Shown here: piece by piece, positions 880 to 22,900 of the stretch | Layout: every line of letters starts with the position of its first letter | How positions within the stretch are numbered: the first letter of the stretch is position 1 | Assembly: GCA_958295695.1 (NCBI GenBank) | Contig: OY282363.1 | Location: forward strand, 1,738,225 to 1,802,224 | DNA length: 64,000 nt | Direction of reading: 5' to 3' | Origin: an uncultured Alphaproteobacteria bacterium | GTDB lineage: Bacteria > Pseudomonadota > Alphaproteobacteria > SP197 | Program-made: the position numbers and the translations under genes | The notes under the pieces: model-generated | What the model saw: the letters and a program-made list of their open reading frames with translations, nothing else | Told to the model about the DNA's origin: nothing | The model's database searches: none

Positions 880-1241
880 CGCTCACTATCGCCCGCGGGT
901 CCTTCATCAGCAGGAACAGGCGACAGGGATCCGTGGGGCGCGGCTCGAACTCCAGAGCCTCGTACCAAGCCCGCGCCTCGTCGTCCTTGGTGTGGACAGG
1001 AAGCGCCCGGATATCGGCGGCCGCGGCGGTCGAGGATATCCTGGAAGGCCCGCCACCGCCGGTCGTCGATCCGGAACATCCGCCGGGCGACCAAGGTGTC
1101 CTCGGCGGCGGCGACCCCGGCCTCGAGCAGAAACTCCGTGACGTTCTTGTGCGACAAGGCCGCGGCCCGCTGGAGCAACGCCTTCACGCTCGGGGTCGTC
1201 CGAAACTCGATGCGCTACGACTTGTTTTCGGCGATGGCCGT
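880..1241 (-). pseudogene. eroded type II toxin-antitoxin pair: DUF1778 (TacA-like) antitoxin remnant joined by deletion to the last ~45 codons of a GNAT (TacT-like) toxin
   Basis: My minus-strand translation reads TAIAENKS*RIEFRTTPSVKALLQRAAALSHKNVTEFLLEAGVAAAEDTLVARRMFRIDDRRWRAFQDILD, a DUF1778 pattern. It has an in-frame TAG at 1215-1217, and GGAGGA at 1248-1253 is followed by ACG (1239-1241) where ATG is expected. A different frame then reads ADIRALPVHTKDDEARAWYEALEFEPRPTDPCRLFLLMKD, which is GNAT-toxin C-terminal motif. The N-terminal ~120 toxin codons are missing. Confidence 0.6.
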
Positions 1242-1361
1242 GAGCGTTCCTCCGAGAGGATCCGCCGGCGTCCTGTCATACGGATATTGTACGGACAAGG
1301 ACGCATCGACGCCGGATGTCAATGGCGCTCCAACATGCCTCGCACGAGCCCCAGGCGACGA

Positions 1362-1910
1362 CTACTCGGTCGCCGCGGCCTCATCCTCTTCCTTCATCTG
1401 CTTGAGCAGTTCGGCGTTGTCCATCATGGCCTGCTTGCGGGCGCTACAGGAGCAACCGCCGTACTGGGCCCAGGTCACGGGATCGACGAAGGGGCCCGAC
1501 CACATGCCGACGCCGTCCCGTTCGGCGGCCGCGGCGCGCTCGAGATACTCCGCGCCGCGGTCTTCGTCGGGCACGGCAAGCCCGGCGTCGATCATGGCGC
1601 CGGCGAGGTCGCGGCCCGCGGCGCTGCAACGGCCCACGAGGCCCGCGCCCGTTTCCGCGATGTCCGAGCAGACGACCTCGTCGGCGCCGATCGCTTCTTC
1701 GAGATAGAGCGCCGCGTCCCAGCCGCAGGACCAGACGTTGTCCCTGGAACCGCAATTCTGGGTGATGGTCGGCGCGTGTACGCCATGGAGGGTCACCTCC
1801 CGTTCGCCGAACCGCACGGTGTCGCCGTCCATCACCATGGGTTGGCCGGCGAACTCGGCGAACGCCAGAGCGGGCGCCAGAGCGAGGATTGCCGTCAGCA
1901 GACGTTTCAC
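1362..1910 (-). CDS. secreted thermonuclease (SNase-like) family protein
   Basis: This is the C-terminal 182 codons of ORF 1362..2696. A GTG start at 1910 is preceded by GGAGGG. The signal peptide is VKRLLTAILALAPALAFA. An SNase-like core is present (MDGDTVRFG..V.LHGVHAP...GRCSAAGRDLAGAMIDAGLAV). Confidence 0.75.
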   Translation of the reverse strand: MKRLLTAILALAPALAFAEFAGQPMVMDGDTVRFGEREVTLHGVHAPTITQNCGSRDNVWSCGWDAALYLEEAIGADEVVCSDIAETGAGLVGRCSAAGRDLAGAMIDAGLAVPDEDRGAEYLERAAAAERDGVGMWSGPFVDPVTWAQYGGCSCSARKQAMMDNAELLKQMKEEDEAAATE

Positions 1911-1984
1911 GGTGTCCCTCCATCGTGTTTGCCGAGCGACCGGAGTATGGCCCAGGCGCGGGAACCGCGCCAAGAGGCCGGATT

Positions 1985-2788
1985 TCACGTTTCCGCGCGC
2001 CGCAGAACGGCGATGAGCTCGTCTTCGAACGGAACGAGCGCGAGGTCGCGGCCGATGCGGGCGGCCAGCGCTTCGACGTGGCTCCGGTAGGTCTCCCGCA
2101 TGCCCTTCTCCCGGCCGCCGAGCGACCGTGCGGGGTAGGTGACGACCACTTGGGGGACGTCGGCGAGGCGCCGGAGCAGCGCGAGGGACGCGCCGTCGTC
2201 CTGCCGGTCGAGGCAGGGCAGGGTTTTGAGCGCCAACGCCAAGTCCGCGCCGCCGCTCTCGATTCCGCCCAGAACGTCGGCCCACAGGCTTTCGCCCGGC
2301 CGGCCGAGGCGCTTGAGAAGCCGCCCCGTCGCCTCCGCGACGCGGCGGTTCGCCTCCACGGCGCGGTAGCGGGTCGAGGGCGGTAGACCCATGAACGGCA
2401 GCGCGAAACCGTTGAAACCCGCCGCGACATCCAGGATGTGCGCGGGGAACCCGGTCTGGGCCCAGATGGCGGCGTAGAAGGCGTCCAGACGGTCGAGCCG
2501 CTCCGCGCTGGAGCGGTGCAGGCGGAGGACCGCCCGGCATGTCTCGACGATGTCGGCGCCGGTGTCCAGCGCATCGAGCCGGCGTTCGAGCGCGCGCAGG
2601 CTCCCGGGATCGAGGTAGGCGCCGAAAGCCTGATGCAACTTGCGCTTGGCGGCCTTCAACGCCTCGGCGGGCCTCGAATGCCGCTCGATCGCCCATCGCG
2701 CCGTTCGCTCCAGGGCCTCGGGCGCCAGGTCGCGGTACTTCGACGATGACGAGAGGACCCCGACGACCGAAGCGAGGGGATCAGCCAT
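1985..2788 (-). CDS. FmrO/Rmt/Arm-family 16S rRNA (guanine1405-N7)-methyltransferase homologue
   Basis: The 267-aa product is collinear with remembered RmtB/ArmA motifs: SSKYRDLAPEALERT; KLHQAFGAYL; LRLHRSSAERLDRLDAFYAAIW; ILDVAAGFNGFALPFM; DLALALKTLPCLDRQ; VVVTYPARSLGGREKGMRETY. The ATG at 2788 overlaps the upstream stop by 8 nt. Confidence 0.85.
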   Translation of the reverse strand: MADPLASVVGVLSSSSKYRDLAPEALERTARWAIERHSRPAEALKAAKRKLHQAFGAYLDPGSLRALERRLDALDTGADIVETCRAVLRLHRSSAERLDRLDAFYAAIWAQTGFPAHILDVAAGFNGFALPFMGLPPSTRYRAVEANRRVAEATGRLLKRLGRPGESLWADVLGGIESGGADLALALKTLPCLDRQDDGASLALLRRLADVPQVVVTYPARSLGGREKGMRETYRSHVEALAARIGRDLALVPFEDELIAVLRRAET

Positions 2789-3866
2789 CGGCCTCGCTCC
2801 GGCGCATCCTGTCGATCAACCGGGCGTAGAATCCGAGGTTGTGGCGCGTGGCCAGCCGCTCCGCCGCCGCATCGCCGATCTTGAAGAGATGATGAAGGTA
2901 GGCGCGCGAGGGGCCTTCGGGATCGAGGGACGGGTCTAGGGCCGACCGGTCTCGCGAGTGCCGTTCATGCTCCATGTAGAGAACATCATAAGATTTATTA
3001 TTTTTCAATATATTATCACTATTATCTAATGTAATATATAAACGCTTGCGACGAGCGTTGCGAGTGGGCAGGGCGCAGTCGAACAGACGGTAGCCGGCCC
3101 GCCAGGCCGCGAGCATGTTTTCCGGCTTTCCGATGCCGAGCGCATGCTTGGGGGCGTCCGCGGGCAGCAGGTCCGCGGTCATGGCGACCATGTCCGTCAG
3201 CAGGCCGTCGTCGCCGATGGGCCAGCCGCCGAAGCCGAAACCGTCGAAACCCATGCCGGCGAGCTCGCCGGCGCAACGTCTGCGCAGGTCGGGATCGGCG
3301 CCGCCCTGGACGACCGCGAAGAGCAGGGGGCGCCCGGCGGCGGCGGCGCCCGGTTCGCAGCCGGCCCGGGCGACGAATTCGTCGCGGCAGCGCCGCGCCC
3401 AGTCGAGCGTCCGTTCGATCCCGGCCCGCTGCGCCTCGGCGGGATCGTTGGGGTGGGTGCACTGGTCGAGGCAGAACAGGATGTCGGCGTCGAGATCGAG
3501 CTGGCGCCGGATACACTTCTCGGGCGTGAGGAGGCGCTTCCTGGCGCCCTTTTCGTGCCGGTAGACGAAGCCCCTGTCGGTCACGCTGCCGAGGCCCGCG
3601 CCGGACGCGGCCATCGACCACGCCTGGAAGCCTCCGGAATCGGACGCGGCGATGCCGTTCCAGCCCATGAAGCGGTGGACGCCGCCCACGGCCTTCACGG
3701 TCGAGGCGCCCGGCCGCGTGGCGAGATGCAGGCTGTTCACCATCAGCGCCTCGACGCCGCATTCGGCGAGGTCGCGGGAATCGAGACCCTTCACGACCGC
3801 GCGCGTGCCGTCGGGCAGGAACGCCGGCAGGCGGAGCGGGCCGCGGCGGGTGCCGAGGACCTTCAC
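2781..3866 (-). CDS. tRNA-guanine transglycosylase (TGT) fold protein, divergent (no Zn-cysteine cluster)
   Basis: The 361-aa product carries TGT motifs: LPAFLPDGT, SDSGGFQAW, LFCLDQCT, FGFGGW, ALGIGKPEN, LFDCALPTRNARR, SRAYLHHL, RHNLGFYARLI. The CxCxxC zinc motif is replaced by SLDPEG. The GTG start at 3866 overlaps the rsmI stop (GTGA). Confidence 0.85.
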   Translation of the reverse strand: MKVLGTRRGPLRLPAFLPDGTRAVVKGLDSRDLAECGVEALMVNSLHLATRPGASTVKAVGGVHRFMGWNGIAASDSGGFQAWSMAASGAGLGSVTDRGFVYRHEKGARKRLLTPEKCIRRQLDLDADILFCLDQCTHPNDPAEAQRAGIERTLDWARRCRDEFVARAGCEPGAAAAGRPLLFAVVQGGADPDLRRRCAGELAGMGFDGFGFGGWPIGDDGLLTDMVAMTADLLPADAPKHALGIGKPENMLAAWRAGYRLFDCALPTRNARRKRLYITLDNSDNILKNNKSYDVLYMEHERHSRDRSALDPSLDPEGPSRAYLHHLFKIGDAAAERLATRHNLGFYARLIDRMRRSEADG

Positions 3867-4573
3867 GCCCGGCCCTTCGTCCGCGGGAACTTCGGGTTGT
3901 CGCCGGCGATCACGACCGTGACCTCGCCCCTGGGCGTCTCCTCCGAGAACCGCGCCGCGAGGGTCGAGATCCAGCCCCGGGCGGTTTCCTCGAACATCTT
4001 GGTGAGCTCGATGCAGACCGCCGCCCTGCGGTCGCCATAGACCTCCAGCGCGTCGGCCAGCAAGGCGCCCAGCCGGTGGGGCGATTCGAACAGCACCTGG
4101 GTGTGGCCGCTGCCGGTTTCGGCGGCCAGGAAGGTCCGCCGCTTGCCGGCCTTGCGCGGCGGGAAGCCGCGGAACGTGTAGCTCGCCGTCGGCAGGCCCG
4201 AGAGCGCGAGCGCGGTGGCGACCGCCGTCGGTCCCGGAACCGCCTCGACCGCGAAACCCTCTTCGGTGGCCATACGGACCGCGCGAAAACCGGGATCGCT
4301 GAGCCCCGGCATGCCGGCGTCGGTGGCGAGCCCCACCTTGAGACCCCGGCGCAGCAGGCCCGCCATGCGTTCCGTGGCCCGGTCCTCGTTATGGTCGTGG
4401 CAGGAGAAGACCACGGGCGGGCTGCGCAGGCCGAAGCGCTCGTAGAGCTTGCGTGTGCGGCGCGTGTCCTCGCAGGCGAGAGCGTCGAGCGAACCCAGGG
4501 TATCGAGGACCCGCTTCGAAATGTCGTCCAGGTTGCCGATAGGCGTGCCGATCAGGATGAGCGTGCCCGTCAT
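3863..4573 (-). CDS. rsmI: 16S rRNA (cytidine1402-2'-O)-methyltransferase RsmI-like
   Basis: An internal ATG at 4573 in ORF 3863..4714 is preceded by GGAAGG. RsmI pattern: LILIGTPIGNLDDISKRVLDTLGSLDALACEDTRRTRKL...ATDAGMPGLSDPGF...VPGPTAVATALALSGLP...FESPHRL...ELTKMFEE. Confidence 0.85.
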   Translation of the reverse strand: MTGTLILIGTPIGNLDDISKRVLDTLGSLDALACEDTRRTRKLYERFGLRSPPVVFSCHDHNEDRATERMAGLLRRGLKVGLATDAGMPGLSDPGFRAVRMATEEGFAVEAVPGPTAVATALALSGLPTASYTFRGFPPRKAGKRRTFLAAETGSGHTQVLFESPHRLGALLADALEVYGDRRAAVCIELTKMFEETARGWISTLAARFSEETPRGEVTVVIAGDNPKFPRTKGRA

Positions 4574-4632
4574 GCGCCTTCCGTTCTTGACCCCGCGTCC
4601 GCGCCCCGTTTCCATGCCCGCGTTCGGGCGGG

Positions 4633-6729
4633 TTGTCGAGCATGGCGGGTTCGAAGGAGACCCTCGCGGCCCTGGTGGCGCCGCGGCGCATCGCGGTGGT
4701 CGGCGCCACCCCACGCGAGGGCGCGGTGGGCAACCGGGTGATCCGGCATGTCGCCGGGCCGCGCTTCGCCGGCGGCGTCGTCGCGGTCAACCCGGGCTAC
4801 GGCGAGGTGCTCGGCCGCACTTGCCACCCTTCGCTGGAAGCGCTTCCCGACGCCGCCGATTGCGCGGTCATGTGCGTCGGCGACAACCGCGTCGAGGCGG
4901 CCGTCGAGGACGCCGCGCGCGCCGGCGTCAAGGCGGTCGTCCTGCTCGGCCGCCTCTACGATCCGGGCCACGGCGGCCCCACGCTCCCGGAGCGTGTCGC
5001 GGGCCTCTGCCGGGAGGCCGGCATGGCCGCCTGCGGGGCGAACTGCATGGGTGTGTTCAACACCATCGACGATGTGTGCCTGGCCATGAGCCACCTGCCC
5101 GGGCTGGACCGGCCCGGGCGCATCGGCCTGCTGTCCCACAGCGGCTCGACCTGGTCGGGGCTGGGCGGAAATCACCGGCCGTTGCGTTTCGGGATCGGCG
5201 TCTCGATGGGCAACGAGCTCGTGACGGGCCTGGCGGACTATCTCGAGTTCCTCGTCGAACGTCCCGAAACCTCCGCCATCGGTCTCGTGCTGGAGACGGT
5301 GCGCGACGGCGACCGTTTCGTCGCCGCCGCGGAGGCGGCGGACAGGGCCGGCGTCCCCCTCGTCGCCCTGAAACTCGGCAAGACCGAGAAGGCGCGCGGG
5401 TTCGCGCTCTCCCACAGCGGCGCCCTGGCGGGCGACGAGCGGGTCTACGACGCCGTGTTCCGCCGCCGCAACGTCATCGGCGTCGACACGCTCGACGAGA
5501 TGGCGGATACGCTGGAGGCGATGGCCTGCGGCCGCGCGCCCACGGCCGACACGGTTGGAATCCAGACAGATTCCGGCGGCGAGCGGCAGCTCATCGCCGA
5601 TCTCGCCGAGCGCAACAAGGTGCCGCTCGCTGTCTTCGGCGAGGCCACCCGGGCGGCGCTGGCCGGGGTGCTCGATCCGGGCCTGGAGCCCGACAACCCC
5701 GTGGATTACTGGGGCGAGGGAGGTCTTCCCGTCGCGCCCAGGGTCATGGACGCGATCGCGCGGGCGCCGGAGGTCGGGGTCGTGGTCTTCTCCACCAACA
5801 TGGTGTCGGGCCGTGCGCTGCTCAACGCCTCGACCGCCGCGCTCGAGGACGCCCACCGGGCGACGGACAAGCCCTGCATGATGCTGGCGAACATCTCCGA
5901 CGCCGTCGACGCCGGGGAGGCCGCGCGCCTCCGCGACGCGGGAATCCCCGTCCTTTCGGGCACCGAGACCGGTCTCAGGGCGATCGGCCATCTGATCGGA
6001 TGGCACGCGCGCCGGAGAGAGAGCGGAGAGCGCGGCGGCGCGGTCGAACCACCGGATTCCGGGATCGTGGCGTACTGGCGTCGGCGGCTCGAGGACCGCG
6101 CGCCGGCGCCGGAGGAGGCGATCGCCATGGTCGCCGATTTCGGCGTGCCGGCGCCCGAGACCGCGGTGTGCGCGGACGAGCGGGACGCGGTCGCCGCGGC
6201 GGAACGCATCGGATTCCCGGTCGTGCTGAAGACGGCGGACCCTTCGATCCCGCACAAGACCGACGTGGGCGGCGTTGTTCTGGATATCGGGACCGATGAC
6301 GAGCTTCGCGCGGCCTACCGGGCCATGGCCGGCGCGCTCGGATCCCGCGTCCTGATCCAGCCGATGGTCTCCCCAGGTGTCGAGATGCTCGTCGGGATGA
6401 CGTCGGATCCGACCTTCGGGCCGGTCATGACCCTGGCGACGGGCGGTGTCCTGACGGAGGTGCTGGACGACGCGGTGGCGGCGGCGCCGCCGGTGTCGCC
6501 CGGCGAGGCCGCCGATCTGGTCGCCGGCCTCAAGGGTTCGGTCCTGCTCGATGGCGTGCGCGGCGCGCGGCCGGCGGACCGCGACGCGCTGGCCCGGGCC
6601 GTGTCGCGCCTCTCGGCGATGGCGGTGGCGCTCGGCGACCTGATCGGCGCGTTCGACGTCAATCCCCTGATCGTCCACGAGCGGGGCGTGACCGCCGTCG
6701 ACGCGCTGGTGACGCCGCGGGGACCGTGA
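4633..6729 (+). CDS. acetate/acyl--CoA ligase (ADP-forming) family protein (CoA-binding + ATP-grasp domains)
   Basis: The 698-aa product has an N-terminal CoA-binding pattern (RRIAVVGATPREGAVGNRV) and a succinyl-CoA-synthetase-like flavodoxin region. The C-terminal ATP-grasp region contains GFPVVLKTADPSIPHKTDVGGV. The start could be the ATG at 4642 rather than the TTG at 4633. Confidence 0.8.
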   Translation: MSSMAGSKETLAALVAPRRIAVVGATPREGAVGNRVIRHVAGPRFAGGVVAVNPGYGEVLGRTCHPSLEALPDAADCAVMCVGDNRVEAAVEDAARAGVKAVVLLGRLYDPGHGGPTLPERVAGLCREAGMAACGANCMGVFNTIDDVCLAMSHLPGLDRPGRIGLLSHSGSTWSGLGGNHRPLRFGIGVSMGNELVTGLADYLEFLVERPETSAIGLVLETVRDGDRFVAAAEAADRAGVPLVALKLGKTEKARGFALSHSGALAGDERVYDAVFRRRNVIGVDTLDEMADTLEAMACGRAPTADTVGIQTDSGGERQLIADLAERNKVPLAVFGEATRAALAGVLDPGLEPDNPVDYWGEGGLPVAPRVMDAIARAPEVGVVVFSTNMVSGRALLNASTAALEDAHRATDKPCMMLANISDAVDAGEAARLRDAGIPVLSGTETGLRAIGHLIGWHARRRESGERGGAVEPPDSGIVAYWRRRLEDRAPAPEEAIAMVADFGVPAPETAVCADERDAVAAAERIGFPVVLKTADPSIPHKTDVGGVVLDIGTDDELRAAYRAMAGALGSRVLIQPMVSPGVEMLVGMTSDPTFGPVMTLATGGVLTEVLDDAVAAAPPVSPGEAADLVAGLKGSVLLDGVRGARPADRDALARAVSRLSAMAVALGDLIGAFDVNPLIVHERGVTAVDALVTPRGP

Positions 6730-18000: not shown

Positions 18001-18190
18001 CGTCGTCCTCCAGGAGATCTTCGATGTCCTTCTCCAGCTTCACGCGAACCTCCCGCTCGATCTTGACGTTGAGATCGATCACGATCGGGTCCTTGGGCGC
18101 CTCGACGCGAACGGTCGGCTGGAAGGCCGCCATGAACAGCGCGACCAACGCCGCTTGATACGTGGGAAGGGTTCTTCGAGAGGACCGCAT
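17987..18190 (-). CDS. ynbE: YnbE-like small protein (lipobox cysteine absent)
   Basis: In the 67-aa product, VRVEAPKDPIVIDLNVKIEREVRVKLEKDIEDLLE matches the YnbE core (IEV.APKEPI.IN.NVKIEHE). The position of the lipidated Cys reads Phe (AAFQPT). Confidence 0.7.
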   Translation of the reverse strand: MRSSRRTLPTYQAALVALFMAAFQPTVRVEAPKDPIVIDLNVKIEREVRVKLEKDIEDLLEDDDESF

Positions 18191-18221
18191 GACATCGTCC
18201 GTTCGCGGATGGCGACCCTGG

Positions 18222-18229
18222 AACGCGAT
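18222..18229. repeat. target-site duplication, left copy (AACGCGAT)
   Basis: Identical 8-mers lie at 18222-18229 and 19931-19938, each separated from the 23-bp inverted repeat by one base. Confidence 0.8.
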
Positions 18230-18230
18230 C

Positions 18231-18253
18231 GGAATTTCCTAGTTTAGGGTCTT
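18231..18253. repeat. left terminal inverted repeat GGAATTTCCTAGTTTAGGGTCTT
   Basis: It is the exact reverse complement of 19907-19929. Confidence 0.9.
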
Positions 18254-18448
18254 TATATCTGGGCGGTTGACTCTGCGCCGCCAAGGATTCCAAGCTCCCT
18301 CCATCGCCAAACCAACCATGGGACGCCCCTGCGTCGGGCTGCCCGTGAATACAAGACCGTGCGAGCGGGAATCAGCGGGGACCCTGAAACCCATGGTTGT
18401 TTGGCGACCGGCCCGGCACTCCCGCCGGCCGGAACGCTGGAGCGAGTC

Positions 18449-19075
18449 ATGAAGCGGATGATGATTGCGGCCCTCGCGGCACTGCTGAGCGGCGCGGCCT
18501 CGGCTGAGGACTACGAGGAGATGCGTCCCAAGGACAGCAAGCTGCGCCTCGGCGTCCTCGGGGAAGAAGCGGAGGGCTCGTGGTTTCTGGAGGAAAAGAA
18601 ATCGTTTGGGACGTTCCGCTGCGACTACGGTTATTGGGGCTTCGACGACGATCAGCGGAGCAGGGTCAAGGCCCAATACTGCTGGTCGGACAACGTCTCC
18701 TCTTGGGACGACAGTGGCGGCTACACTGGCGAGGAGGCCGACACGGACGAGTTCCTGGAATGGAACGATGAGACACGCCTTGCCGACAGCAGGGACAACG
18801 CCGAGGAAGGCCCTACCATCGAAACCGTCGTCGGAGATGTTGTCGTACACGCCTTCGACGTGGAGAAGGACACGTCTTGGAAGACCTACAGGGAGTGCAT
18901 GGGGTTTCACATGGTCTGGGGCAAGGGGTACGGCGTATCGCGCAAACTCTACGCCAAGTCGCTGACCTTCTACGCCTGCGACAACGCCACCAGCACCATG
19001 TCGGAGGCCAAGCTCCTCCGCATTCTGTCCAGCTTCAGCATCGAAGGTGAGTTCGACGCGCTGGTAGAGAACTAG
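18449..19075 (+). CDS. hypothetical secreted acidic protein (passenger gene of the IS-like element)
   Basis: An internal ATG at 18449 in ORF 18359..19075 is preceded by GGAGCGAG. The signal peptide is MKRMMIAALAALLSGAASA. The mature part is D/E/W-rich with 4 Cys. I recognise no family. Confidence 0.6.
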   Translation: MKRMMIAALAALLSGAASAEDYEEMRPKDSKLRLGVLGEEAEGSWFLEEKKSFGTFRCDYGYWGFDDDQRSRVKAQYCWSDNVSSWDDSGGYTGEEADTDEFLEWNDETRLADSRDNAEEGPTIETVVGDVVVHAFDVEKDTSWKTYRECMGFHMVWGKGYGVSRKLYAKSLTFYACDNATSTMSEAKLLRILSSFSIEGEFDALVEN

Positions 19076-19078
19076 CCG

Positions 19079-19833
19079 TCAGTCTTCCAGCGCGAGCGGA
19101 ATGGTCTTGTTCAGCTTGGGGAAGGCGCGGTTGAGGTCGCCCTTGAAGCGGTTCCAGTTGGGGGCCGCCCGCATGAGCGCCATGACAGCCGCCGAGTGCT
19201 GGTTGAGCTTGACGTGGCCGGGGTCCGGCGTGAACCATTGATGGTGCGTCGTGCGCCGCCGTCCTGTCGGCAGTGTCGGATTGATCCGCTTCAACTCATC
19301 CAGGACGCCGGGCGCCAAGCGTTCGTAGACGAGATCGTTGGTGTAGTGGCCGATGACGGCGGGGCGCTTGTGGCCGTCCGGGCCGGGCCGTCGCCCTTCG
19401 TGCCCTTGCGAGGCTTGCCACCGATAAAGGTCTCGTCCATCTCGACGATGCCGGCCAGAAGCAACCGGTGCTCGGCTTGGGTCATGGCCCGCTTGATCTG
19501 CATGGCGATCCGCCAGGCCGTGTTCTTGTTCACGTCGAGATCGCGGGAAAGCTGGAGCGCCGACAGGCCCTTCTTGGCGTTCAGCATAAGCATGATCGCC
19601 AGAAACCACTTCTGGAGCGGCAGGTGCGTGCGGTGGAAGATCGTCCCGACCGTCACGCTGAACGAGGTCTTGCAGTCGTAGCAGCGATGGCGGCGGCGTG
19701 CGTCGTTGCTGGGAGCGGTGTTGGCCGACCCGCAATAGGGGCACTTCGGCTCGCCCTTCCACCGTGCCGCCTCAAGATGAGCGACGCAGGATTCTTGGTC
19801 GGGAAACCACTCGAAAATCTGTATGATGTTCAT
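19079..19833 (-). pseudogene. IS1595-type transposase N-terminal region (Zn-ribbon + HTH) continued, after a -1 frame change, by a P63C-like phage-type C-terminus; DDE catalytic domain absent
   Basis: From the ATG at 19833 the sequence MNIIQIFEWFPDQESCVAHLEAARWKGEPKCPYCGS...RHRCYDCKTSFSVTVGTIFHRTHLPLQKWFLAI...GLSALQLSRDLDVNKNTAWRIAMQIKRAM...VEMDETFIGGK matches the IS1595/ISXO2 N-terminus. Near 19388-19400 (GGCCCGGCCCGG) the sensible reading moves to the frame of ORF 19079..19762. That frame reads HKRPAVIGHYTNDLVYERLAPGVLDELKRINP...HHQWFTPDPGHVKLNQH...LMRAAPNWNRFKGDLNRAFP. Confidence 0.65.
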
Positions 19834-19906
19834 CGGCAATCCGTCCTTTCGTGGCGCGTTCGATCCGGTGACAGGATGAACATGACCCCCGATTGGGCGG
19901 ATTATC

Positions 19907-19929
19907 AAGACCCTAAACTAGGAAATTCC
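19907..19929. repeat. right terminal inverted repeat AAGACCCTAAACTAGGAAATTCC
   Basis: It is the exact reverse complement of 18231-18253. Confidence 0.9.
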
Positions 19930-19930
19930 A

Positions 19931-19938
19931 AACGCGAT
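19931..19938. repeat. target-site duplication, right copy (AACGCGAT)
   Basis: Identical to 18222-18229. Confidence 0.8.
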
Positions 19939-19942
19939 TGTG

Positions 19943-22900
19943 TCAGAAAACGGACAGGCGTTCTCGGATTTCTTCCGGGAGGCGCCACGCGCCGAGGCCG
20001 TGGAGCAGGATCTCGTCGAGGTCGCCGGCGAGGTTGACGTTGAGTTCGATCGGATAGCCGTCATGAAAGCCCGGATTGGCCCCGGCGATATGGACGCCGA
20101 GTTCCGCCGCGCCGCCCGCCGCGCGGTCGATGTCGATCGCCAGGGCGCTGAACCGGAAGTCCGACAGGACATCGAGCACTTGTTCCATGTTCTCGTCCAT
20201 CGGGCCGAAGGGCGCTGGCCGTCCGTCCGGAATGTAGCGCAGCAGCCCGGCGGAATCGGCGTCGAGCCGGCCGTGCGCGATGACGATGTCGCCGCCCGTC
20301 ATTCGGACGGGAATGGAGCCCGTCAGTCTCGCGTCGGTCTCGATCCATGGAACGTCGAGGTCGTCCAGCAGCGTCGCGAGGTCGACGCCCTGGATGTCGA
20401 GCAGCGCCTCGTTGCCGTCCGGCGCGAGGCGGAGGACCGAGGGGCGGGCCGCGATGCGCCCGCCGGCGAGCCCGGCGGACGCGGCGTCGACGCGCAGGCT
20501 GCCGTCGCCGGGGAGCGCGAGGGTGACCGCGAGGTCGGTCAGGGGAAGGCCGGCATCGAGCCTTTCGGCCGCGAGCGTCTGTTTCGGCGGGGTCGAGAGC
20601 GGATCGACGTTGGAGAACGTCACCTCGCCTTCGAGGCCCTCGATGGCGACGCCGCCGTTCCGGCCTGACAGGCCGAGAAGGGAGAGCGTGAGGTCCGATG
20701 ACGCGACGCCGTCGTCGATCGCGATCTTCCCATGGAGCTCGACGGCGCCGGAGACCTCCTCCAGAAGGCCGCCATAGAGCGGAGACACCTCGTTCGGCTG
20801 GCTCCCGCCGGGCTCGAACCGGATCGGCGGGACGCGGATCAGCGCGCGAAACAGGTCGTCCGACGGCCGGTAGCTCGACTCCACGTTGGCGAGGAAGCGC
20901 CGGTCGCCCATGTGGAGAGTGCCGTTGAAGCGGACATCGTCGCCCAACGGCCAGACCGGCATGACCGCAACGTCGGCGGCCAGCGGCGCGAAACGGGCGG
21001 GTTCGCGGAGGTCTTCGATGACCCGGATGTCGGCGGTGGCCTGCGGCCAATCCGACAGGCCGTTGTTGTACGTGAAGAGGAGCCGGATATCGGCCAGACG
21101 GAGGTCGGGTCCCTCGACGAGGATGTCGCCGCCCTCGGTTTCGACCGTCCCCTGGAGGTGATGGCGGCCCAGGCTGCCGAACCGGACGCCCATCGACGGC
21201 AGAGTTCCGTCGACAGCCGCGATCGTCCCGCCGTCCTCGATCACGTCGAAACGCACTCCGGCCGGGCCGGTCAGCAGGCGCGCGTCCCAACTCCAGTCCT
21301 CGCCGAAGCGTTCCAGGACCAGCAACGGCAGCAGCTCGGCCTCGAGCTTCACGGAGGTCGCGCGATGCGAGCGGAGACGCGGATGCCGGAGGGTCCGGAT
21401 GTCGATCCAGGCGGTGTCGGCTAGGCGGACGTTGAGGCCGTTGTCCACCAGTTCGAAGTCGAGCGGCAGCTCGGCCAGGACCCCCGTGGCGGCCGTATCG
21501 AGGACGGTCACCGTGTCGGCTTGAAAGAGCGCGACGGGGTCGGCCTCCGCGCGCGTCGCCCCGTCCGCATGGCCGATTCTCAGCGGGAGGTCGAGGACGA
21601 TGGCGGTAGCGTCAGCGCCGGCGGCCGAGAGCGTGTCGAGCCTGGCCCGCAGGCTCGCCGCGCCGTCGAACGCGGCGGGCGCGCCCGCGATACCGCCGGC
21701 GACGCGGATGGCGCCCGTCGCGCTCCGGGGCGCGAGCGCGCCCGAGGCGGCGAACTCGAGCGCGGAAACATCGAAGGCGGCCAGCGCGCCATCGGGAGTC
21801 AGCTCCGCGTCGCCGCGGATGGAAAGCCGGCCGTCGAGGTCCCCGCCGCTCCTCAAGGAAGCGTCCAGGGCCGCCGCGATGGCGATCGACTCGCCCGAGA
21901 CGGTCGCGTCGGCGACGATCCCCTCCGGTGGAAGCGTCAGGTCGAACGGACGGTCGAGAGCCGCCGCGACGATCCCGCCCGCCGCCTCGGGCGGAGGCAG
22001 GCGCGCGCCCAGGATCGCCCCGCCCGGCCGCGCGGTCAGGCGCAGACGCCGCCCGTCCGCGGCGATGTCGAATGACAGCGCCGAGGCCTCGACGGAAAAC
22101 CGGTCGGACAGGGACATGGCCCCGGTCTCCAGGTCGATCCGGCCCGTCAGGGCGATGGCGTGGAGGTCGAGCGGCCGGTCGGGTGGAACGAAGGCCTCGA
22201 ACGAGACGTCCAGGCTCGCGGGGCCATGCAGATCGAGCGAATCGACCATGGGCGGGGTCATGGAGTCGCGAACGGCGAACGCGCCCGTCGCGGCGACGCG
22301 GAGCCGATCCCCGGCCATGCCGGAGACGATCGAGACGGCGGCCGAGAGCGGCGCCTCCTCGACGCCGAAACCGATGTCGGCGACGAACGAGCGGCCGTCC
22401 CACGACCCTTCGGCGGTCAGGCCGCCGAGGTCCGGGCCGCCCGCGGCGACCTCGGCCTCGGCGAGCGAAACGACGACCCTGTCGCGGCCCGAGACGGGGT
22501 CGGGTTCGAGGGACAGGACGCCGGACACGTGGCCGAACGCGCCGTCCACGCGCCATCGGCCGGAGCCCGAGACCGATGCGCCGGTCGATTCCAGGGCGGC
22601 GTCGAGCCGTGCGCGGATCGTGTCGAGCGGATGGACAAGGGCGATCTCGGCGTCCTCGATGACGAGGGCCGCGAAGGGGAGCGGTTCGCGGAGCCCGTTT
22701 CCGTCATCGCGCCGGTTCAGCAATCCGGCCAGAGGAGACGCCGGGACGCCGTCCCCGTCGAAACGGATCGCGAGATCGACGCCGGCGAGGCGCACCGATT
22801 CGACCCGCCCGTCGAGAAGCCGCCACGGACGAAAGGACAGTTCGACGCGGCCGACCGCGCCGGCCCCGGGAACGGAGACGCCGGTCAGCACCATGCGGCC

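Follow-up and report, generated by a model that had tools for sequence, protein, structure and literature searches.

To our knowledge, base-exchange chemistry has so far been found only in tRNA (Q, archaeosine) and in DNA (Dpd), and we know of no base-exchange modification of rRNA. In the bacterial enzyme Tgt (EC 2.4.2.29; Z. mobilis, 1PUD/1Q2R, and E. coli) a peptide switch of Leu231, Ala232 and Glu235 lets guanine, and then preQ1, bind; the N-H of Ala232 faces the N7 of guanine, with a water molecule in between, and forms a pair with Glu235 in the course of the switch (PMC3660597). Substrate-specificity positions were exchanged between the bacterial and the eukaryotic enzymes in the mutations C158V and V233G (PMC3660597). 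ArcTGT and the QTRT proteins share the TGT catalytic domain. DpdA is a TGT paralogue, whose substrate was predicted from the clustering of its gene, and in the DpdA of phage 9g two of the four zinc ligands are missing (PMC5699537). In addition, tgt-like ORFs adjoin several 16S rRNA methyltransferase genes on plasmids, and this rmt-tgt linkage has been remarked in passing (PMC3904158, PMC9311965). A search of the full-text literature returned no published function for the subfamily to which these ORFs belong, only passing mentions of a "tRNA ribosyltransferase" or "tgt" beside rmtG.

Here, a member of the same subfamily was analyzed in a 64-kb window, by which we mean the whole stretch of alphaproteobacterial DNA under study. 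The features of the locus are:

1985..2788, minus strand, FmrO/Rmt-family 16S rRNA (G1405-N7) methyltransferase-like gene (Pfam FmrO, E 2.1e-42; conserved family residues)
2781..3866, minus strand, TGT-like CDS of 361 aa, zinc-less member of the Rmt/FmrO-linked TGT subfamily (Pfam, phmmer, AF2, Foldseek)
2841..2843, minus strand, codon of H342 in TRHNL, equivalent to Z. mobilis H349, sole retained zinc ligand (alignment)
2907..2951, minus strand, loop DRSALDPSLDPEGPS where other TGTs have the CxCxxC zinc knuckle, without Cys and with a 3-residue deletion (alignment)
3078..3080, minus strand, codon of D263 in LFDCALPTR, equivalent to the catalytic nucleophile D280 (Asp in 84/84 subfamily members)
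3219..3230, minus strand, GGWP motif G213-P216, with W215-P216 in place of the canonical Leu231-Ala232 peptide switch (Pro in 84/84, Trp in 81/84)
3465..3467, minus strand, codon of D134 in LDQCT, equivalent to the purine-pocket Asp D156 of Z. mobilis (Asp in 84/84)
3639..3641, minus strand, codon of D76 in SDSGGFQ, equivalent to the purine-pocket Asp D102 of Z. mobilis (Asp in 84/84)
3863..4714, minus strand, RsmI-like 16S rRNA (C1402 2'-O) methyltransferase gene, maximal ORF with a probable start at ATG 4573 (TIGR00096)

Fold, active site and pocket of the TGT-like protein

The TGT-like ORF, which starts with GTG, encodes a protein of the TGT superfamily with the (beta/alpha)8 fold. The Pfam model TGT (PF01702) matched with an E value of 5.6e-79 (266 bits, cut-off 26.3), and in a phmmer search against the PDB residues 6-361 aligned to residues 32-368 of the Z. 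mobilis TGT (E 3e-61). The AF2 model is of high confidence along the whole chain (pLDDT 95, pTM 0.93) and its best Foldseek match is again the Z. mobilis TGT, as a full-length match (TM 0.88, rmsd 2.0 A, 32% identity). QTRT1 and ArcTGT were matched with E values of ~1e-41 and 1e-7, respectively. In difference to ArcTGT the protein has no C1, C2 or PUA domain, as its chain stops after the TGT helices at residue 361, and it fails the archaeosine TGT model TIGR00432 (63.6 bits, cut-off 350); in difference to QTRT2 it keeps the nucleophile.

Judged from the retained residues, the active site looks competent. Beside the three aspartates, the purine-pocket positions Q203 and G230 are kept as Q187 and G214, and S103 of the pocket is likewise common to this protein and bacterial Tgt. 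Of the 84 subfamily members, 83-84 have the equivalents of D102, D156, D280, Q203 and G229/G230 (83 for Q203), and all have those of R286 and R289. The window protein also retains the RNA-contact and dimer residues R286, R289, K/R52, F92, Y330 and H333 of bacterial Tgt, with most of the dimer hot spots, and the equivalent of Cys158, which we take to be the mark of preQ1 specificity. The initial annotation had read SDSGGFQ, LDQCT, GIGKPEN, LFDCALPTR and SRAYLHHL as retained motifs and had named misaligned catalytic aspartates as the sign of an inactive relic. All five motifs were found correctly aligned in the phmmer and subfamily alignments, and D76, D134 and D263 line up with D102, D156 and D280.

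The same annotation had estimated that about 10-15 N-terminal residues were missing, which agrees with the alignment: P14 corresponds to P27 of E. coli Tgt, and the 13 absent residues comprise the first strand and the GRARRG turn. The truncation is common to the whole subfamily, and the homologues all begin at the same point. A longer N-terminus from an upstream start was rejected, since the open frame has no start codon, reads as off-frame Arg/Gly/Pro over the rsmI-like gene and the homologues begin at the same residue.

The pocket wall that faces N7/C7 has been re-engineered, with Trp-Pro for Leu-Ala and with Glu235 unconserved. In the 84 members A232 is always replaced by Pro, L231 by Trp in 81 and V45 by Asp in 83; at the position of Glu235 the window protein has D219. 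Compared to bacterial Tgt it carries, next to V45D, the exchanges F155L, L259A, M260L and N304D. We define the subfamily by GG(W/Y)P, a short N-terminus of the form MxxLxTxxGxLxLPAF, Asp at the Val45 position and an FmrO/Rmt neighbor, and the window protein shows the hallmarks GGWP (213-216), the MKVLGTRRGPLRLPAF N-terminus and D19 at the Val45 position.

By sequence comparison, the TGT-like ORF belongs to a distinct, large and uncharacterized paralogous branch of TGTs. It fails the Tgt equivalog model TIGR00430 (255.8 bits, cut-off 306.75) and passes the superfamily model TIGR00449 alone. In the neighbor-joining (NJ) tree the subfamily was separated from 10 canonical Tgt sequences in 100/100 bootstraps; members are on average 51% identical to one another and 35% identical to canonical Tgt. 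A scan of 185,579 species genomes found at least 478 subfamily loci, in a patchy distribution. Some database records label homologues "Tgt".

The zinc site

The zinc ligands C318, C320 and C323 are replaced by Leu, Pro and a gap, respectively, within DRSALDPSLDPEGPS. The initial annotation had proposed that the zinc-cysteine cluster is lost and that only the His of the site is left, and both statements hold: the zinc region aligns without ambiguity, all three Cys are absent and H342 is retained. The rest of the sequence after C264 contains no Cys, so the missing ligands do not lie elsewhere in the C-terminal subdomain, which the annotation had named as a possible objection. Replacement metal ligands (His/Asp) were considered but are not supported, since the nearby DExHxRD and PxD residues are also present in zinc-containing members. 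The His pair in SRAYLHHL corresponds to H332/H333 of Z. mobilis at the dimer interface, and neither is the zinc His.

In the sampled loci of the subfamily the zinc site is the rule. Among 80 genome loci, which are the best of the at least 478 loci, most similar to the query and with two alphaproteobacterial loci among them, CxCxxC was found in 74 and three Cys in a variant spacing in 3 more. The site is absent in only 3 of the 80, i.e., the two alphaproteobacterial loci and one of Bacteroidota. Members with a zinc site have the same unusual gene context as those without. In the NJ tree the zinc-less clade is nested within zinc-containing members, which marks the loss as a late, lineage-specific event; going by these sequences, one small clade of Alphaproteobacteria shows it as a derived trait. 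The view that a remodelled zinc subdomain reflects a changed substrate can therefore be kept in part: the changed substrate stands as the most likely reading, but the zinc loss is not its mark, as most of the 80 loci keep the zinc site, with the same unusual gene context, and the loss is nested and late.

The same Cys-less sequence is kept in ~23 protein clusters (68-100% identity). With dN/dS values of ~0.12-0.25, which include the C-terminal subdomain, the sequences indicate that the zinc-less clade is under purifying selection. A reading as pseudogene or relic was dropped on these grounds. The marine alphaproteobacterial lineage of the window has lost the structural zinc knuckle secondarily, with a proline-rich loop instead, and constraint was not relaxed. 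E. coli Tgt mutants without the zinc site are inactive. The zinc-free clade is a natural experiment and shows that a TGT under selection can do without its zinc knuckle. One speculative cause of the loss is that marine bacteria may need to spare zinc.

Gene context in genomes and on plasmids

In the window the order of the operon is rsmI-like, TGT-like, fmrO-like, and the three genes are translationally coupled. The TGA of the rsmI-like gene overlaps the GTG start of the TGT-like gene (GTGA), and the fmrO-like gene, on the same strand, shares 8 nt with the end of the TGT-like gene, from its own ATG to the TGT-like stop codon (ATGGCTGA). The RsmI-like gene exceeds the cut-off of TIGR00096 (180.4 bits, cut-off 167.9), where the match begins at residue 52. 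The FmrO-like protein reaches 178 bits with the NCBI Rmt model NF000466, under the cut-off of 250, and its own G1405 specificity is for this reason inferred. Neither a second TGT gene nor a QueE-like or RsmH gene is present in the 64-kb window, PADLOC gave no Dpd match, and the Rfam and tRNA scans of the window returned just tRNA-Pro and tRNA-Arg, both distant. A nuclease-like gene, guessed by eye at 1362-1991, has no Pfam support.

The subfamily is a conserved operon partner of FmrO/Rmt-type m7G1405 methyltransferases, usually together with the C1402 enzymes RsmI or RsmH. An FmrO gene is the direct same-strand neighbor in 73 of the 80 genome loci; other adjacent genes encode RsmI (36), RsmH (3) or a QueE-like protein (4). 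In the reciprocal scan, seeded with FmrO and likewise taking the 80 loci closest to the query rather than a random sample, 67 of the 75 informative metagenome loci have a TGT-like neighbor. The linkage spans ~20 phyla. Clustering of all neighbors within a few kb of 85 loci (the 80 genome loci and five others), an unsupervised approach in which fused stop-to-stop ORFs from GC-rich DNA spoiled part of the result, gave one cluster present in 8 loci, which is RsmF-like (C1407) in its one tested member. In this locus (L051) the order is RsmI, TGT, FmrO, FmrO and then, downstream, the RsmF-like gene. The neighbors recognized at subfamily loci are genes of rRNA methyltransferases; some lineages add a QueE-like radical-SAM gene, and the Latescibacterota-type loci (L004-L011) add the translation genes thrS, infC and rplT. 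The queA-tgt-yajC context of the real tgt was never found at subfamily loci, and no dpd, DNA-metabolism or restriction genes are among the recognized neighbors there.

On clinical plasmids subfamily genes lie directly upstream of rmtB2, rmtD2, rmtE2 and rmtG. The rmtG array consists of rsmH, tgt-like, rmtG and a truncated rsmI; rmtB2 and rmtD2 each have a tgt-like gene upstream, and the copy upstream of rmtE2 is truncated. In tblastn the plasmid identities to the window protein are bimodal, with 40-44% for the Rmt-linked copies and 28-33% for true tgt. The ORFs named "tgt" or "tRNA ribosyltransferase" beside these rmt genes belong to the same subfamily as the window protein, share its GGWP motif and its N-terminus, and likewise directly precede and overlap the Rmt gene. 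However, the plasmid copies keep CxCxxC, which the window protein lacks, and they cluster with Clostridia/Eubacteriales MAG genes, away from the alphaproteobacterial clade. They are mobilized by IS91/ISCR-type elements. The TGT-like proteins show higher conservation than the Rmt proteins that they accompany (77% vs 57%, 66% vs 42%), and the carrier Enterobacterales have a chromosomal tgt in addition to the plasmid gene. We know of armA, rmtC and other such acquired 16S-RMTase genes only from reports without a TGT-like gene. Since Rmt resistance arises without it and rmtE2 has only a truncated copy, the methyltransferase is independent of the TGT-like gene.

The substrate

Three features point to a changed substrate, which we regard as the likeliest reading: the Trp-Pro replacement of the switch, the subfamily-wide N-terminal truncation and the near-obligate operon with helix-44 methyltransferases. 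The near-constant rRNA-methyltransferase neighbors suggest that the target is probably the ribosomal decoding site rather than tRNA. As the best explanation, which we hold at somewhat below an even chance, we propose a catalytically competent, distinct TGT paralogue that, as the partner of FmrO/Rmt, would exchange guanine in 16S rRNA helix 44 coupled to G1405 methylation. A more detailed version is more tentative still: here the protein would be an rRNA guanine transglycosylase that exchanges a base at or next to G1405 in concert with the m7G1405 methyltransferase, e.g., with m7G as a pre-activated leaving group. This would be the first base-exchange modification in rRNA, and the gene would be a hidden passenger or fitness modulator of the plasmid-borne rmtB2, rmtD, rmtE and rmtG.

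In mechanistic terms, a guanine-type base exchange would proceed through a covalent Asp263-ribose intermediate. We predict that the enzyme acts in the decoding-centre part of helix 44, on G1405 or a base beside it, where it would meet a G-U step comparable to G34-U35 of tRNA and would work jointly with the methyltransferase. In one version, N7-methylation would turn m7G into an activated leaving group, after which another base would be put in. As Pro216 offers no amide N-H that faces N7, the enzyme may be unable to activate the leaving group itself; this argument on m7G is a structural inference from the Trp/Pro pair. In lineages with a QueE-like gene in the operon the incoming base may be a 7-deazaguanine. 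A helix-44 module finds its rationale in ArmA (m7G1405), which blocks RsmI at C1402 (PMC3923132, PMC12406665), and the prediction of DpdA function from the clustering of a tgt paralogue provides a precedent (PMC5699537). The retained R286, R289, K/R52 and dimer hot spots would suit a substrate like the tRNA anticodon loop equally well and were counted against the rRNA reading, as were the dispensability of the gene for Rmt resistance and the low Rmt-model score of the window's FmrO-like protein.

It is rather unlikely, although deserving of attention, that the enzyme is a transglycosylase still acting on tRNA or another small RNA with an altered base or sequence specificity. It would then be retained beside the Rmt/RsmI/RsmH genes because it makes up for what m7G1405 in the decoding centre costs translation. 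The retained RNA-contact and dimer residues and the dispensability of the gene for resistance are in line with this, and m7G1405 methyltransferases are indeed costly in fitness and fidelity and disturb C1402 methylation (PMC3923132, PMC12406665). However, the operon partners are all 16S helix-44 enzymes (C1402, G1405, sometimes C1407) with no tRNA enzyme among them, the queA-tgt-yajC context is missing and so is the GRARRG strand of tRNA-type TGTs. Another reading, which we hold improbable, is a divergent orthologue that serves as the housekeeping Tgt, which would insert preQ1 at tRNA position 34, sit in a translation operon by chance and have lost its zinc as a harmless quirk. All catalytic and purine-pocket residues and Cys158 are kept, homologues carry the name "Tgt" in some records and the window holds no second TGT gene. 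This reading conflicts with the failed TIGR00430 cut-off, the split from canonical Tgt in all bootstraps and the loss of the Leu231/Ala232/Glu235 switch in every member. It also fits poorly with the patchy distribution, with only two alphaproteobacterial loci in the best 80, and with the coexistence with a chromosomal tgt in plasmid-bearing Enterobacterales.

We consider it very improbable that the protein has no catalytic role, be it as a dead relic or as a scaffold or chaperone of the methyltransferase comparable to the inactive QTRT2. Zinc-site loss does abolish the activity of E. coli Tgt, and Rmt-mediated resistance does not need the gene, but the nucleophile and the purine-pocket residues are invariant over the 84 members, the low dN/dS extends to the C-terminal subdomain, the AF2 model is confident throughout and, of the TGT-like protein and its methyltransferase partner, the latter is the less conserved. 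We give next to no credence to a DpdA-like DNA-guanine transglycosylase that places 7-deazaguanines in DNA. The common TGT ancestry, the partial zinc ligands of the phage 9g enzyme (PMC5699537) and the adjoining QueE-like gene of some lineages speak for it; against it, there is no PADLOC (Dpd) match, the neighbors are rRNA methyltransferases rather than dpd, DNA-metabolism or restriction genes, and bacterial Tgt is by far the closer in sequence, with bacterial tRNA TGTs as the nearest structures over the full length.

The TGT-like subfamily is also found on hospital plasmids with aminoglycoside-resistance genes and has been mentioned only in passing in the resistance literature. Intact copies accompany rmtB2, rmtD2 and rmtG on plasmids of Klebsiella, Enterobacter and Providencia, and a possible influence of these copies on the rRNA product, the resistance spectrum and the fitness cost is directly testable. 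If 16S rRNA is the substrate, base exchange would be a new chemical class in ribosome modification. The Rmt/FmrO genes would then be parts of a conserved module for modification of the decoding centre in many uncultured phyla, and not stand-alone resistance genes.

Fold, active site and zinc loop of the TGT-like protein

The TGT-like gene is the middle one of a three-gene operon on the minus strand of the window:

1985-2788, minus strand, fmrO/rmt-like gene downstream of the TGT-like gene (Pfam FmrO, E 2.1e-42)
2781-3866, minus strand, TGT-like CDS of 361 aa with GTG start
3863-4714, minus strand, rsmI-like gene upstream of the TGT-like gene (TIGR00096 above cut-off)

The TGT fold proposed in the initial annotation was recovered by a Pfam TGT match (E 5.6e-79) and by an AlphaFold2 model built from 114 homologues (pLDDT 95, pTM 0.93), which is confident along the whole chain and superimposes on Z. 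mobilis TGT structures over the full length (TM 0.88, rmsd about 2 A). Residues 6-361 align to Z. mobilis TGT 32-368 (phmmer against all PDB sequences, E 3e-61, 32% identity). In NCBIfam the TGT superfamily model was matched, and the score against the true Tgt equivalog (255.8 bits) lies below the curated cut-off of 306.75. P14 aligns with P27 of E. coli Tgt, making the N-terminus 13 residues shorter, where 10-15 had been estimated; a longer protein from a start codon further upstream was excluded.

Model confidence is lower in the variable insert ITLDNSDNILKNNKSYD (pLDDT about 71). The stretch encoding it (3007-3059) is an AT-rich patch, against a genomic G+C of about 70%, and gave the sole promoter-like match and one of two terminator-like matches in the scanned region 1200-5200, which are probably composition artefacts.

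The catalytic residues are kept (Z. mobilis numbering second): D76/D102, D134/D156, the nucleophile D263/D280, Q187/Q203 and G213/G214 for G229/G230. At the zinc ligands C318, C320 and C323 the protein has Leu, Pro and a gap, within ...DRSALDPSLDPEGPS..., and no cysteine occurs beyond residue 264, so that the ligands have not moved elsewhere in the C-terminal subdomain. Of the four ligands only H349 survives, as H342 in TRHNL; the His pair of SRAYLHHL (H332/H333) belongs to the dimer interface and is distinct from the zinc His. The initial observation of retained catalytic aspartates and a zinc site reduced to its His is thereby confirmed.

Among the 120 best database homologue clusters, 24 share 68-100% identity with the protein, and every one of these comes from Rhodospirillales or other alphaproteobacterial MAGs. 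The same Cys-less loop occurs in 23 of them; the remaining one (P0024) is an incomplete record that stops short of the region. All 96 remoter clusters (51-57% identity, many phyla) have three cysteines there, mostly as C[DG]CxxC and in a few cases with variant spacing. Among 80 genome loci, all three are gone only in the alphaproteobacterial L013 and L014, and are partly lost in L035 (Bacteroidota). The window, L013 and L014 form one clade in a neighbour-joining tree (100/100 bootstraps) and, because this clade is nested among zinc-containing members, the loss is derived. Their pairwise dN/dS is 0.12-0.23 across the whole gene and 0.20-0.25 when the C-terminal third is taken alone. Zinc loss is thus real, selected and lineage-specific. 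A precedent is DpdA of phage 9g (PMC5699537), in which two of the four zinc ligands are missing. A DpdA-like enzyme is hardly credible here.

A separate TGT subfamily with an altered purine pocket

The window protein is a member of an uncharacterised TGT subfamily separate from canonical Tgt. The bipartition between the subfamily and ten canonical Tgt from six classes was found in 100/100 bootstraps, and members share on average 51% identity with one another and 35% with canonical Tgt. A tblastn search of 72,556 plasmids likewise gave two identity classes (40-44% and 28-33%).

Positions invariant in canonical Tgt and altered in the subfamily (Z. mobilis numbering)
L231: Trp in 81/84 members
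A232: Pro in 84/84 members
E235: unconserved
V45: Asp in 83/84 members
F155: Leu in 84/84 members
L259: Ala
M260: Leu
N304: Asp

The canonical enzyme has a Leu231/Ala232 peptide that flips between two states, with its N-H towards guanine N7 via water or its C=O towards the preQ1 aminomethyl group, both stabilised by Glu235 (PMC3660597). In contrast, the subfamily has Trp/Pro and an unconserved position 235, and since a proline in position 232 lacks the amide hydrogen, the flip cannot operate. Among the residues retained are S103, G104, G105, Q107, R286 and R289; position 339 stays acidic, and most of the dimer hot spot (F92, Y330, H333) is unchanged. The enzyme is apparently active, with the wall facing purine position 7 remodelled.

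Gene context and resistance plasmids

Gene context is the strongest evidence on the TGT-like gene, which is co-inherited and co-translated with enzymes that act on C1402, G1405 and sometimes C1407 of 16S rRNA. In the window the rsmI-like TGA overlaps its GTG (GTGA), and the fmrO/rmt-like ATG overlaps its stop codon (ATGGCTGA). Scanning a single genome for each species gave at least 478 loci. In the best 80 of these (about 20 phyla), HMM searches of locus ORFs found the following directly adjacent genes on the same strand:

FmrO family: 73/80 loci
RsmI-like: 36/80 loci
RsmH-like: 3/80 loci
QueE-like radical-SAM: 4/80 loci

Conversely, with an FmrO alignment as seed in 80 metagenome loci, the TGT-like gene stood beside FmrO in 67 of 75 informative loci. 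Canonical tgt, by contrast, lies in queA-tgt-yajC arrays. Clustering of neighbours within a few kb (the 80 genome loci and five others) gave a further cluster in 8/85 loci; its sole tested member, from L051, is RsmF-like (m5C1407) and lies downstream in the order RsmI, TGT, FmrO, FmrO, cluster gene.

Some of the 80 loci carry two tandem FmrO paralogues. Such a pair follows the TGT-like gene in many Chloroflexota loci (L051:9058-12180; similarly L057, L064, L076, L084, L086, L089), and some Bacteroidota/Ignavibacteria loci have one FmrO on either side. Just upstream of the TGT-like/FmrO pair, Latescibacterota and Gemmatimonadota loci carry a small radical-SAM gene (L004:5334-5966, L008:4255-4905; also L015, L016, L019, L021, L039), for which every top-scoring family is a QueE (7-carboxy-7-deazaguanine synthase) one, yet with scores far below cut-offs. 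In L004-L011, the loci with downstream genes read, the pair is followed by thrS, infC, (rpmI,) rplT. The window operon is flanked by the glmS 3' end (1-712) and a divergent ADP-forming acyl-CoA synthetase-like gene (4633-6729), neither linked to translation; between glmS and the operon, the first 54 residues of a minus-strand ORF (780-1187) match a TacA-like antitoxin domain (PF08681, E 8e-16). At 18001-20000 local G+C is 0.62 against about 0.70 elsewhere.

TGT-like genes of the same subfamily also accompany clinical resistance genes on plasmids:

pKP13f: rsmH, tgt-like, rmtG, truncated rsmI
Providencia plasmid: tgt-like, metallophosphoesterase, rmtB2
Klebsiella plasmid: tgt-like, rmtD2
Enterobacter and E. 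coli plasmids: tgt-like gene lacking its 5' end, in overlap with rmtE2

Conservation is higher for the TGT-like proteins than for the methyltransferases beside them (77% and 57% for G against D2; 66% and 42% for B2 against D2), and divergence follows the same rank order. In front of rmtE2 the tgt-like gene has lost its 5' end beside an IS91-family transposase (L097:3555-4253, L098:3712-4254), and therefore the intact enzyme is not needed for RmtE-mediated resistance. The Providencia metallophosphoesterase (L002:7131-7940) is YaeI-like. In the literature searched, no paper on the function of the TGT-like gene was found, only mentions beside rmtG: a 'putative tRNA ribosyltransferase' upstream (PMC3904158) and, in a passage of PMC9311965 citing Passarelli-Araujo 2019, an 'operon with rsmH, tgt, rsmI'.

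The plasmid TGT-like genes group with genes of Clostridia/Eubacteriales MAGs in the tree. An uncultured Clostridia MAG (L066:486-4654, CANQEW010000054.1) has the order of the rmtG array (RsmH, TGT-like, FmrO, RsmI), and its identity to pKP13f (L001:5060-8126) is 75% for RsmH, 81% for the TGT-like protein, 71% for the RsmI fragment and only 49% for RmtG. Together these are a lead on the source of the rmtG, rmtD and rmtB2 arrays.

Proposed function

The changed substrate expected in the initial annotation is partly supported, on grounds other than the one proposed there: the pocket change and the rRNA-methyltransferase context speak for it, whereas zinc loss, being late and with zinc-containing relatives, does not serve as the reason. 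An ordinary Tgt seems improbable, and an inactive partner, with the catalytic aspartates in place, very improbable.

We tentatively favour rRNA as the target. The enzyme would act where helix 44 contributes to the decoding centre, at or beside G1405, exchanging a guanine-type base there in concert with the methyltransferase. Speculatively, N7-methylation might create the leaving group, with Pro216 no longer able to assist in its activation, and another base, perhaps a 7-deazaguanine in loci with a QueE-like gene, might then be inserted. ArmA-type G1405 methylation blocks RsmI at C1402 (PMC3923132, PMC12406665), which would explain why these enzymes might be co-adapted in one module. However, Rmt enzymes work without the TGT-like gene, and the conservation of R286, R289 and dimer residues suits a tRNA-loop-like substrate equally well. 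The same residues favour a tRNA-directed variant that would compensate for the cost of m7G1405, which we consider rather unlikely. The hypothesis on this subfamily is testable and has a direct tie to clinically important resistance plasmids.
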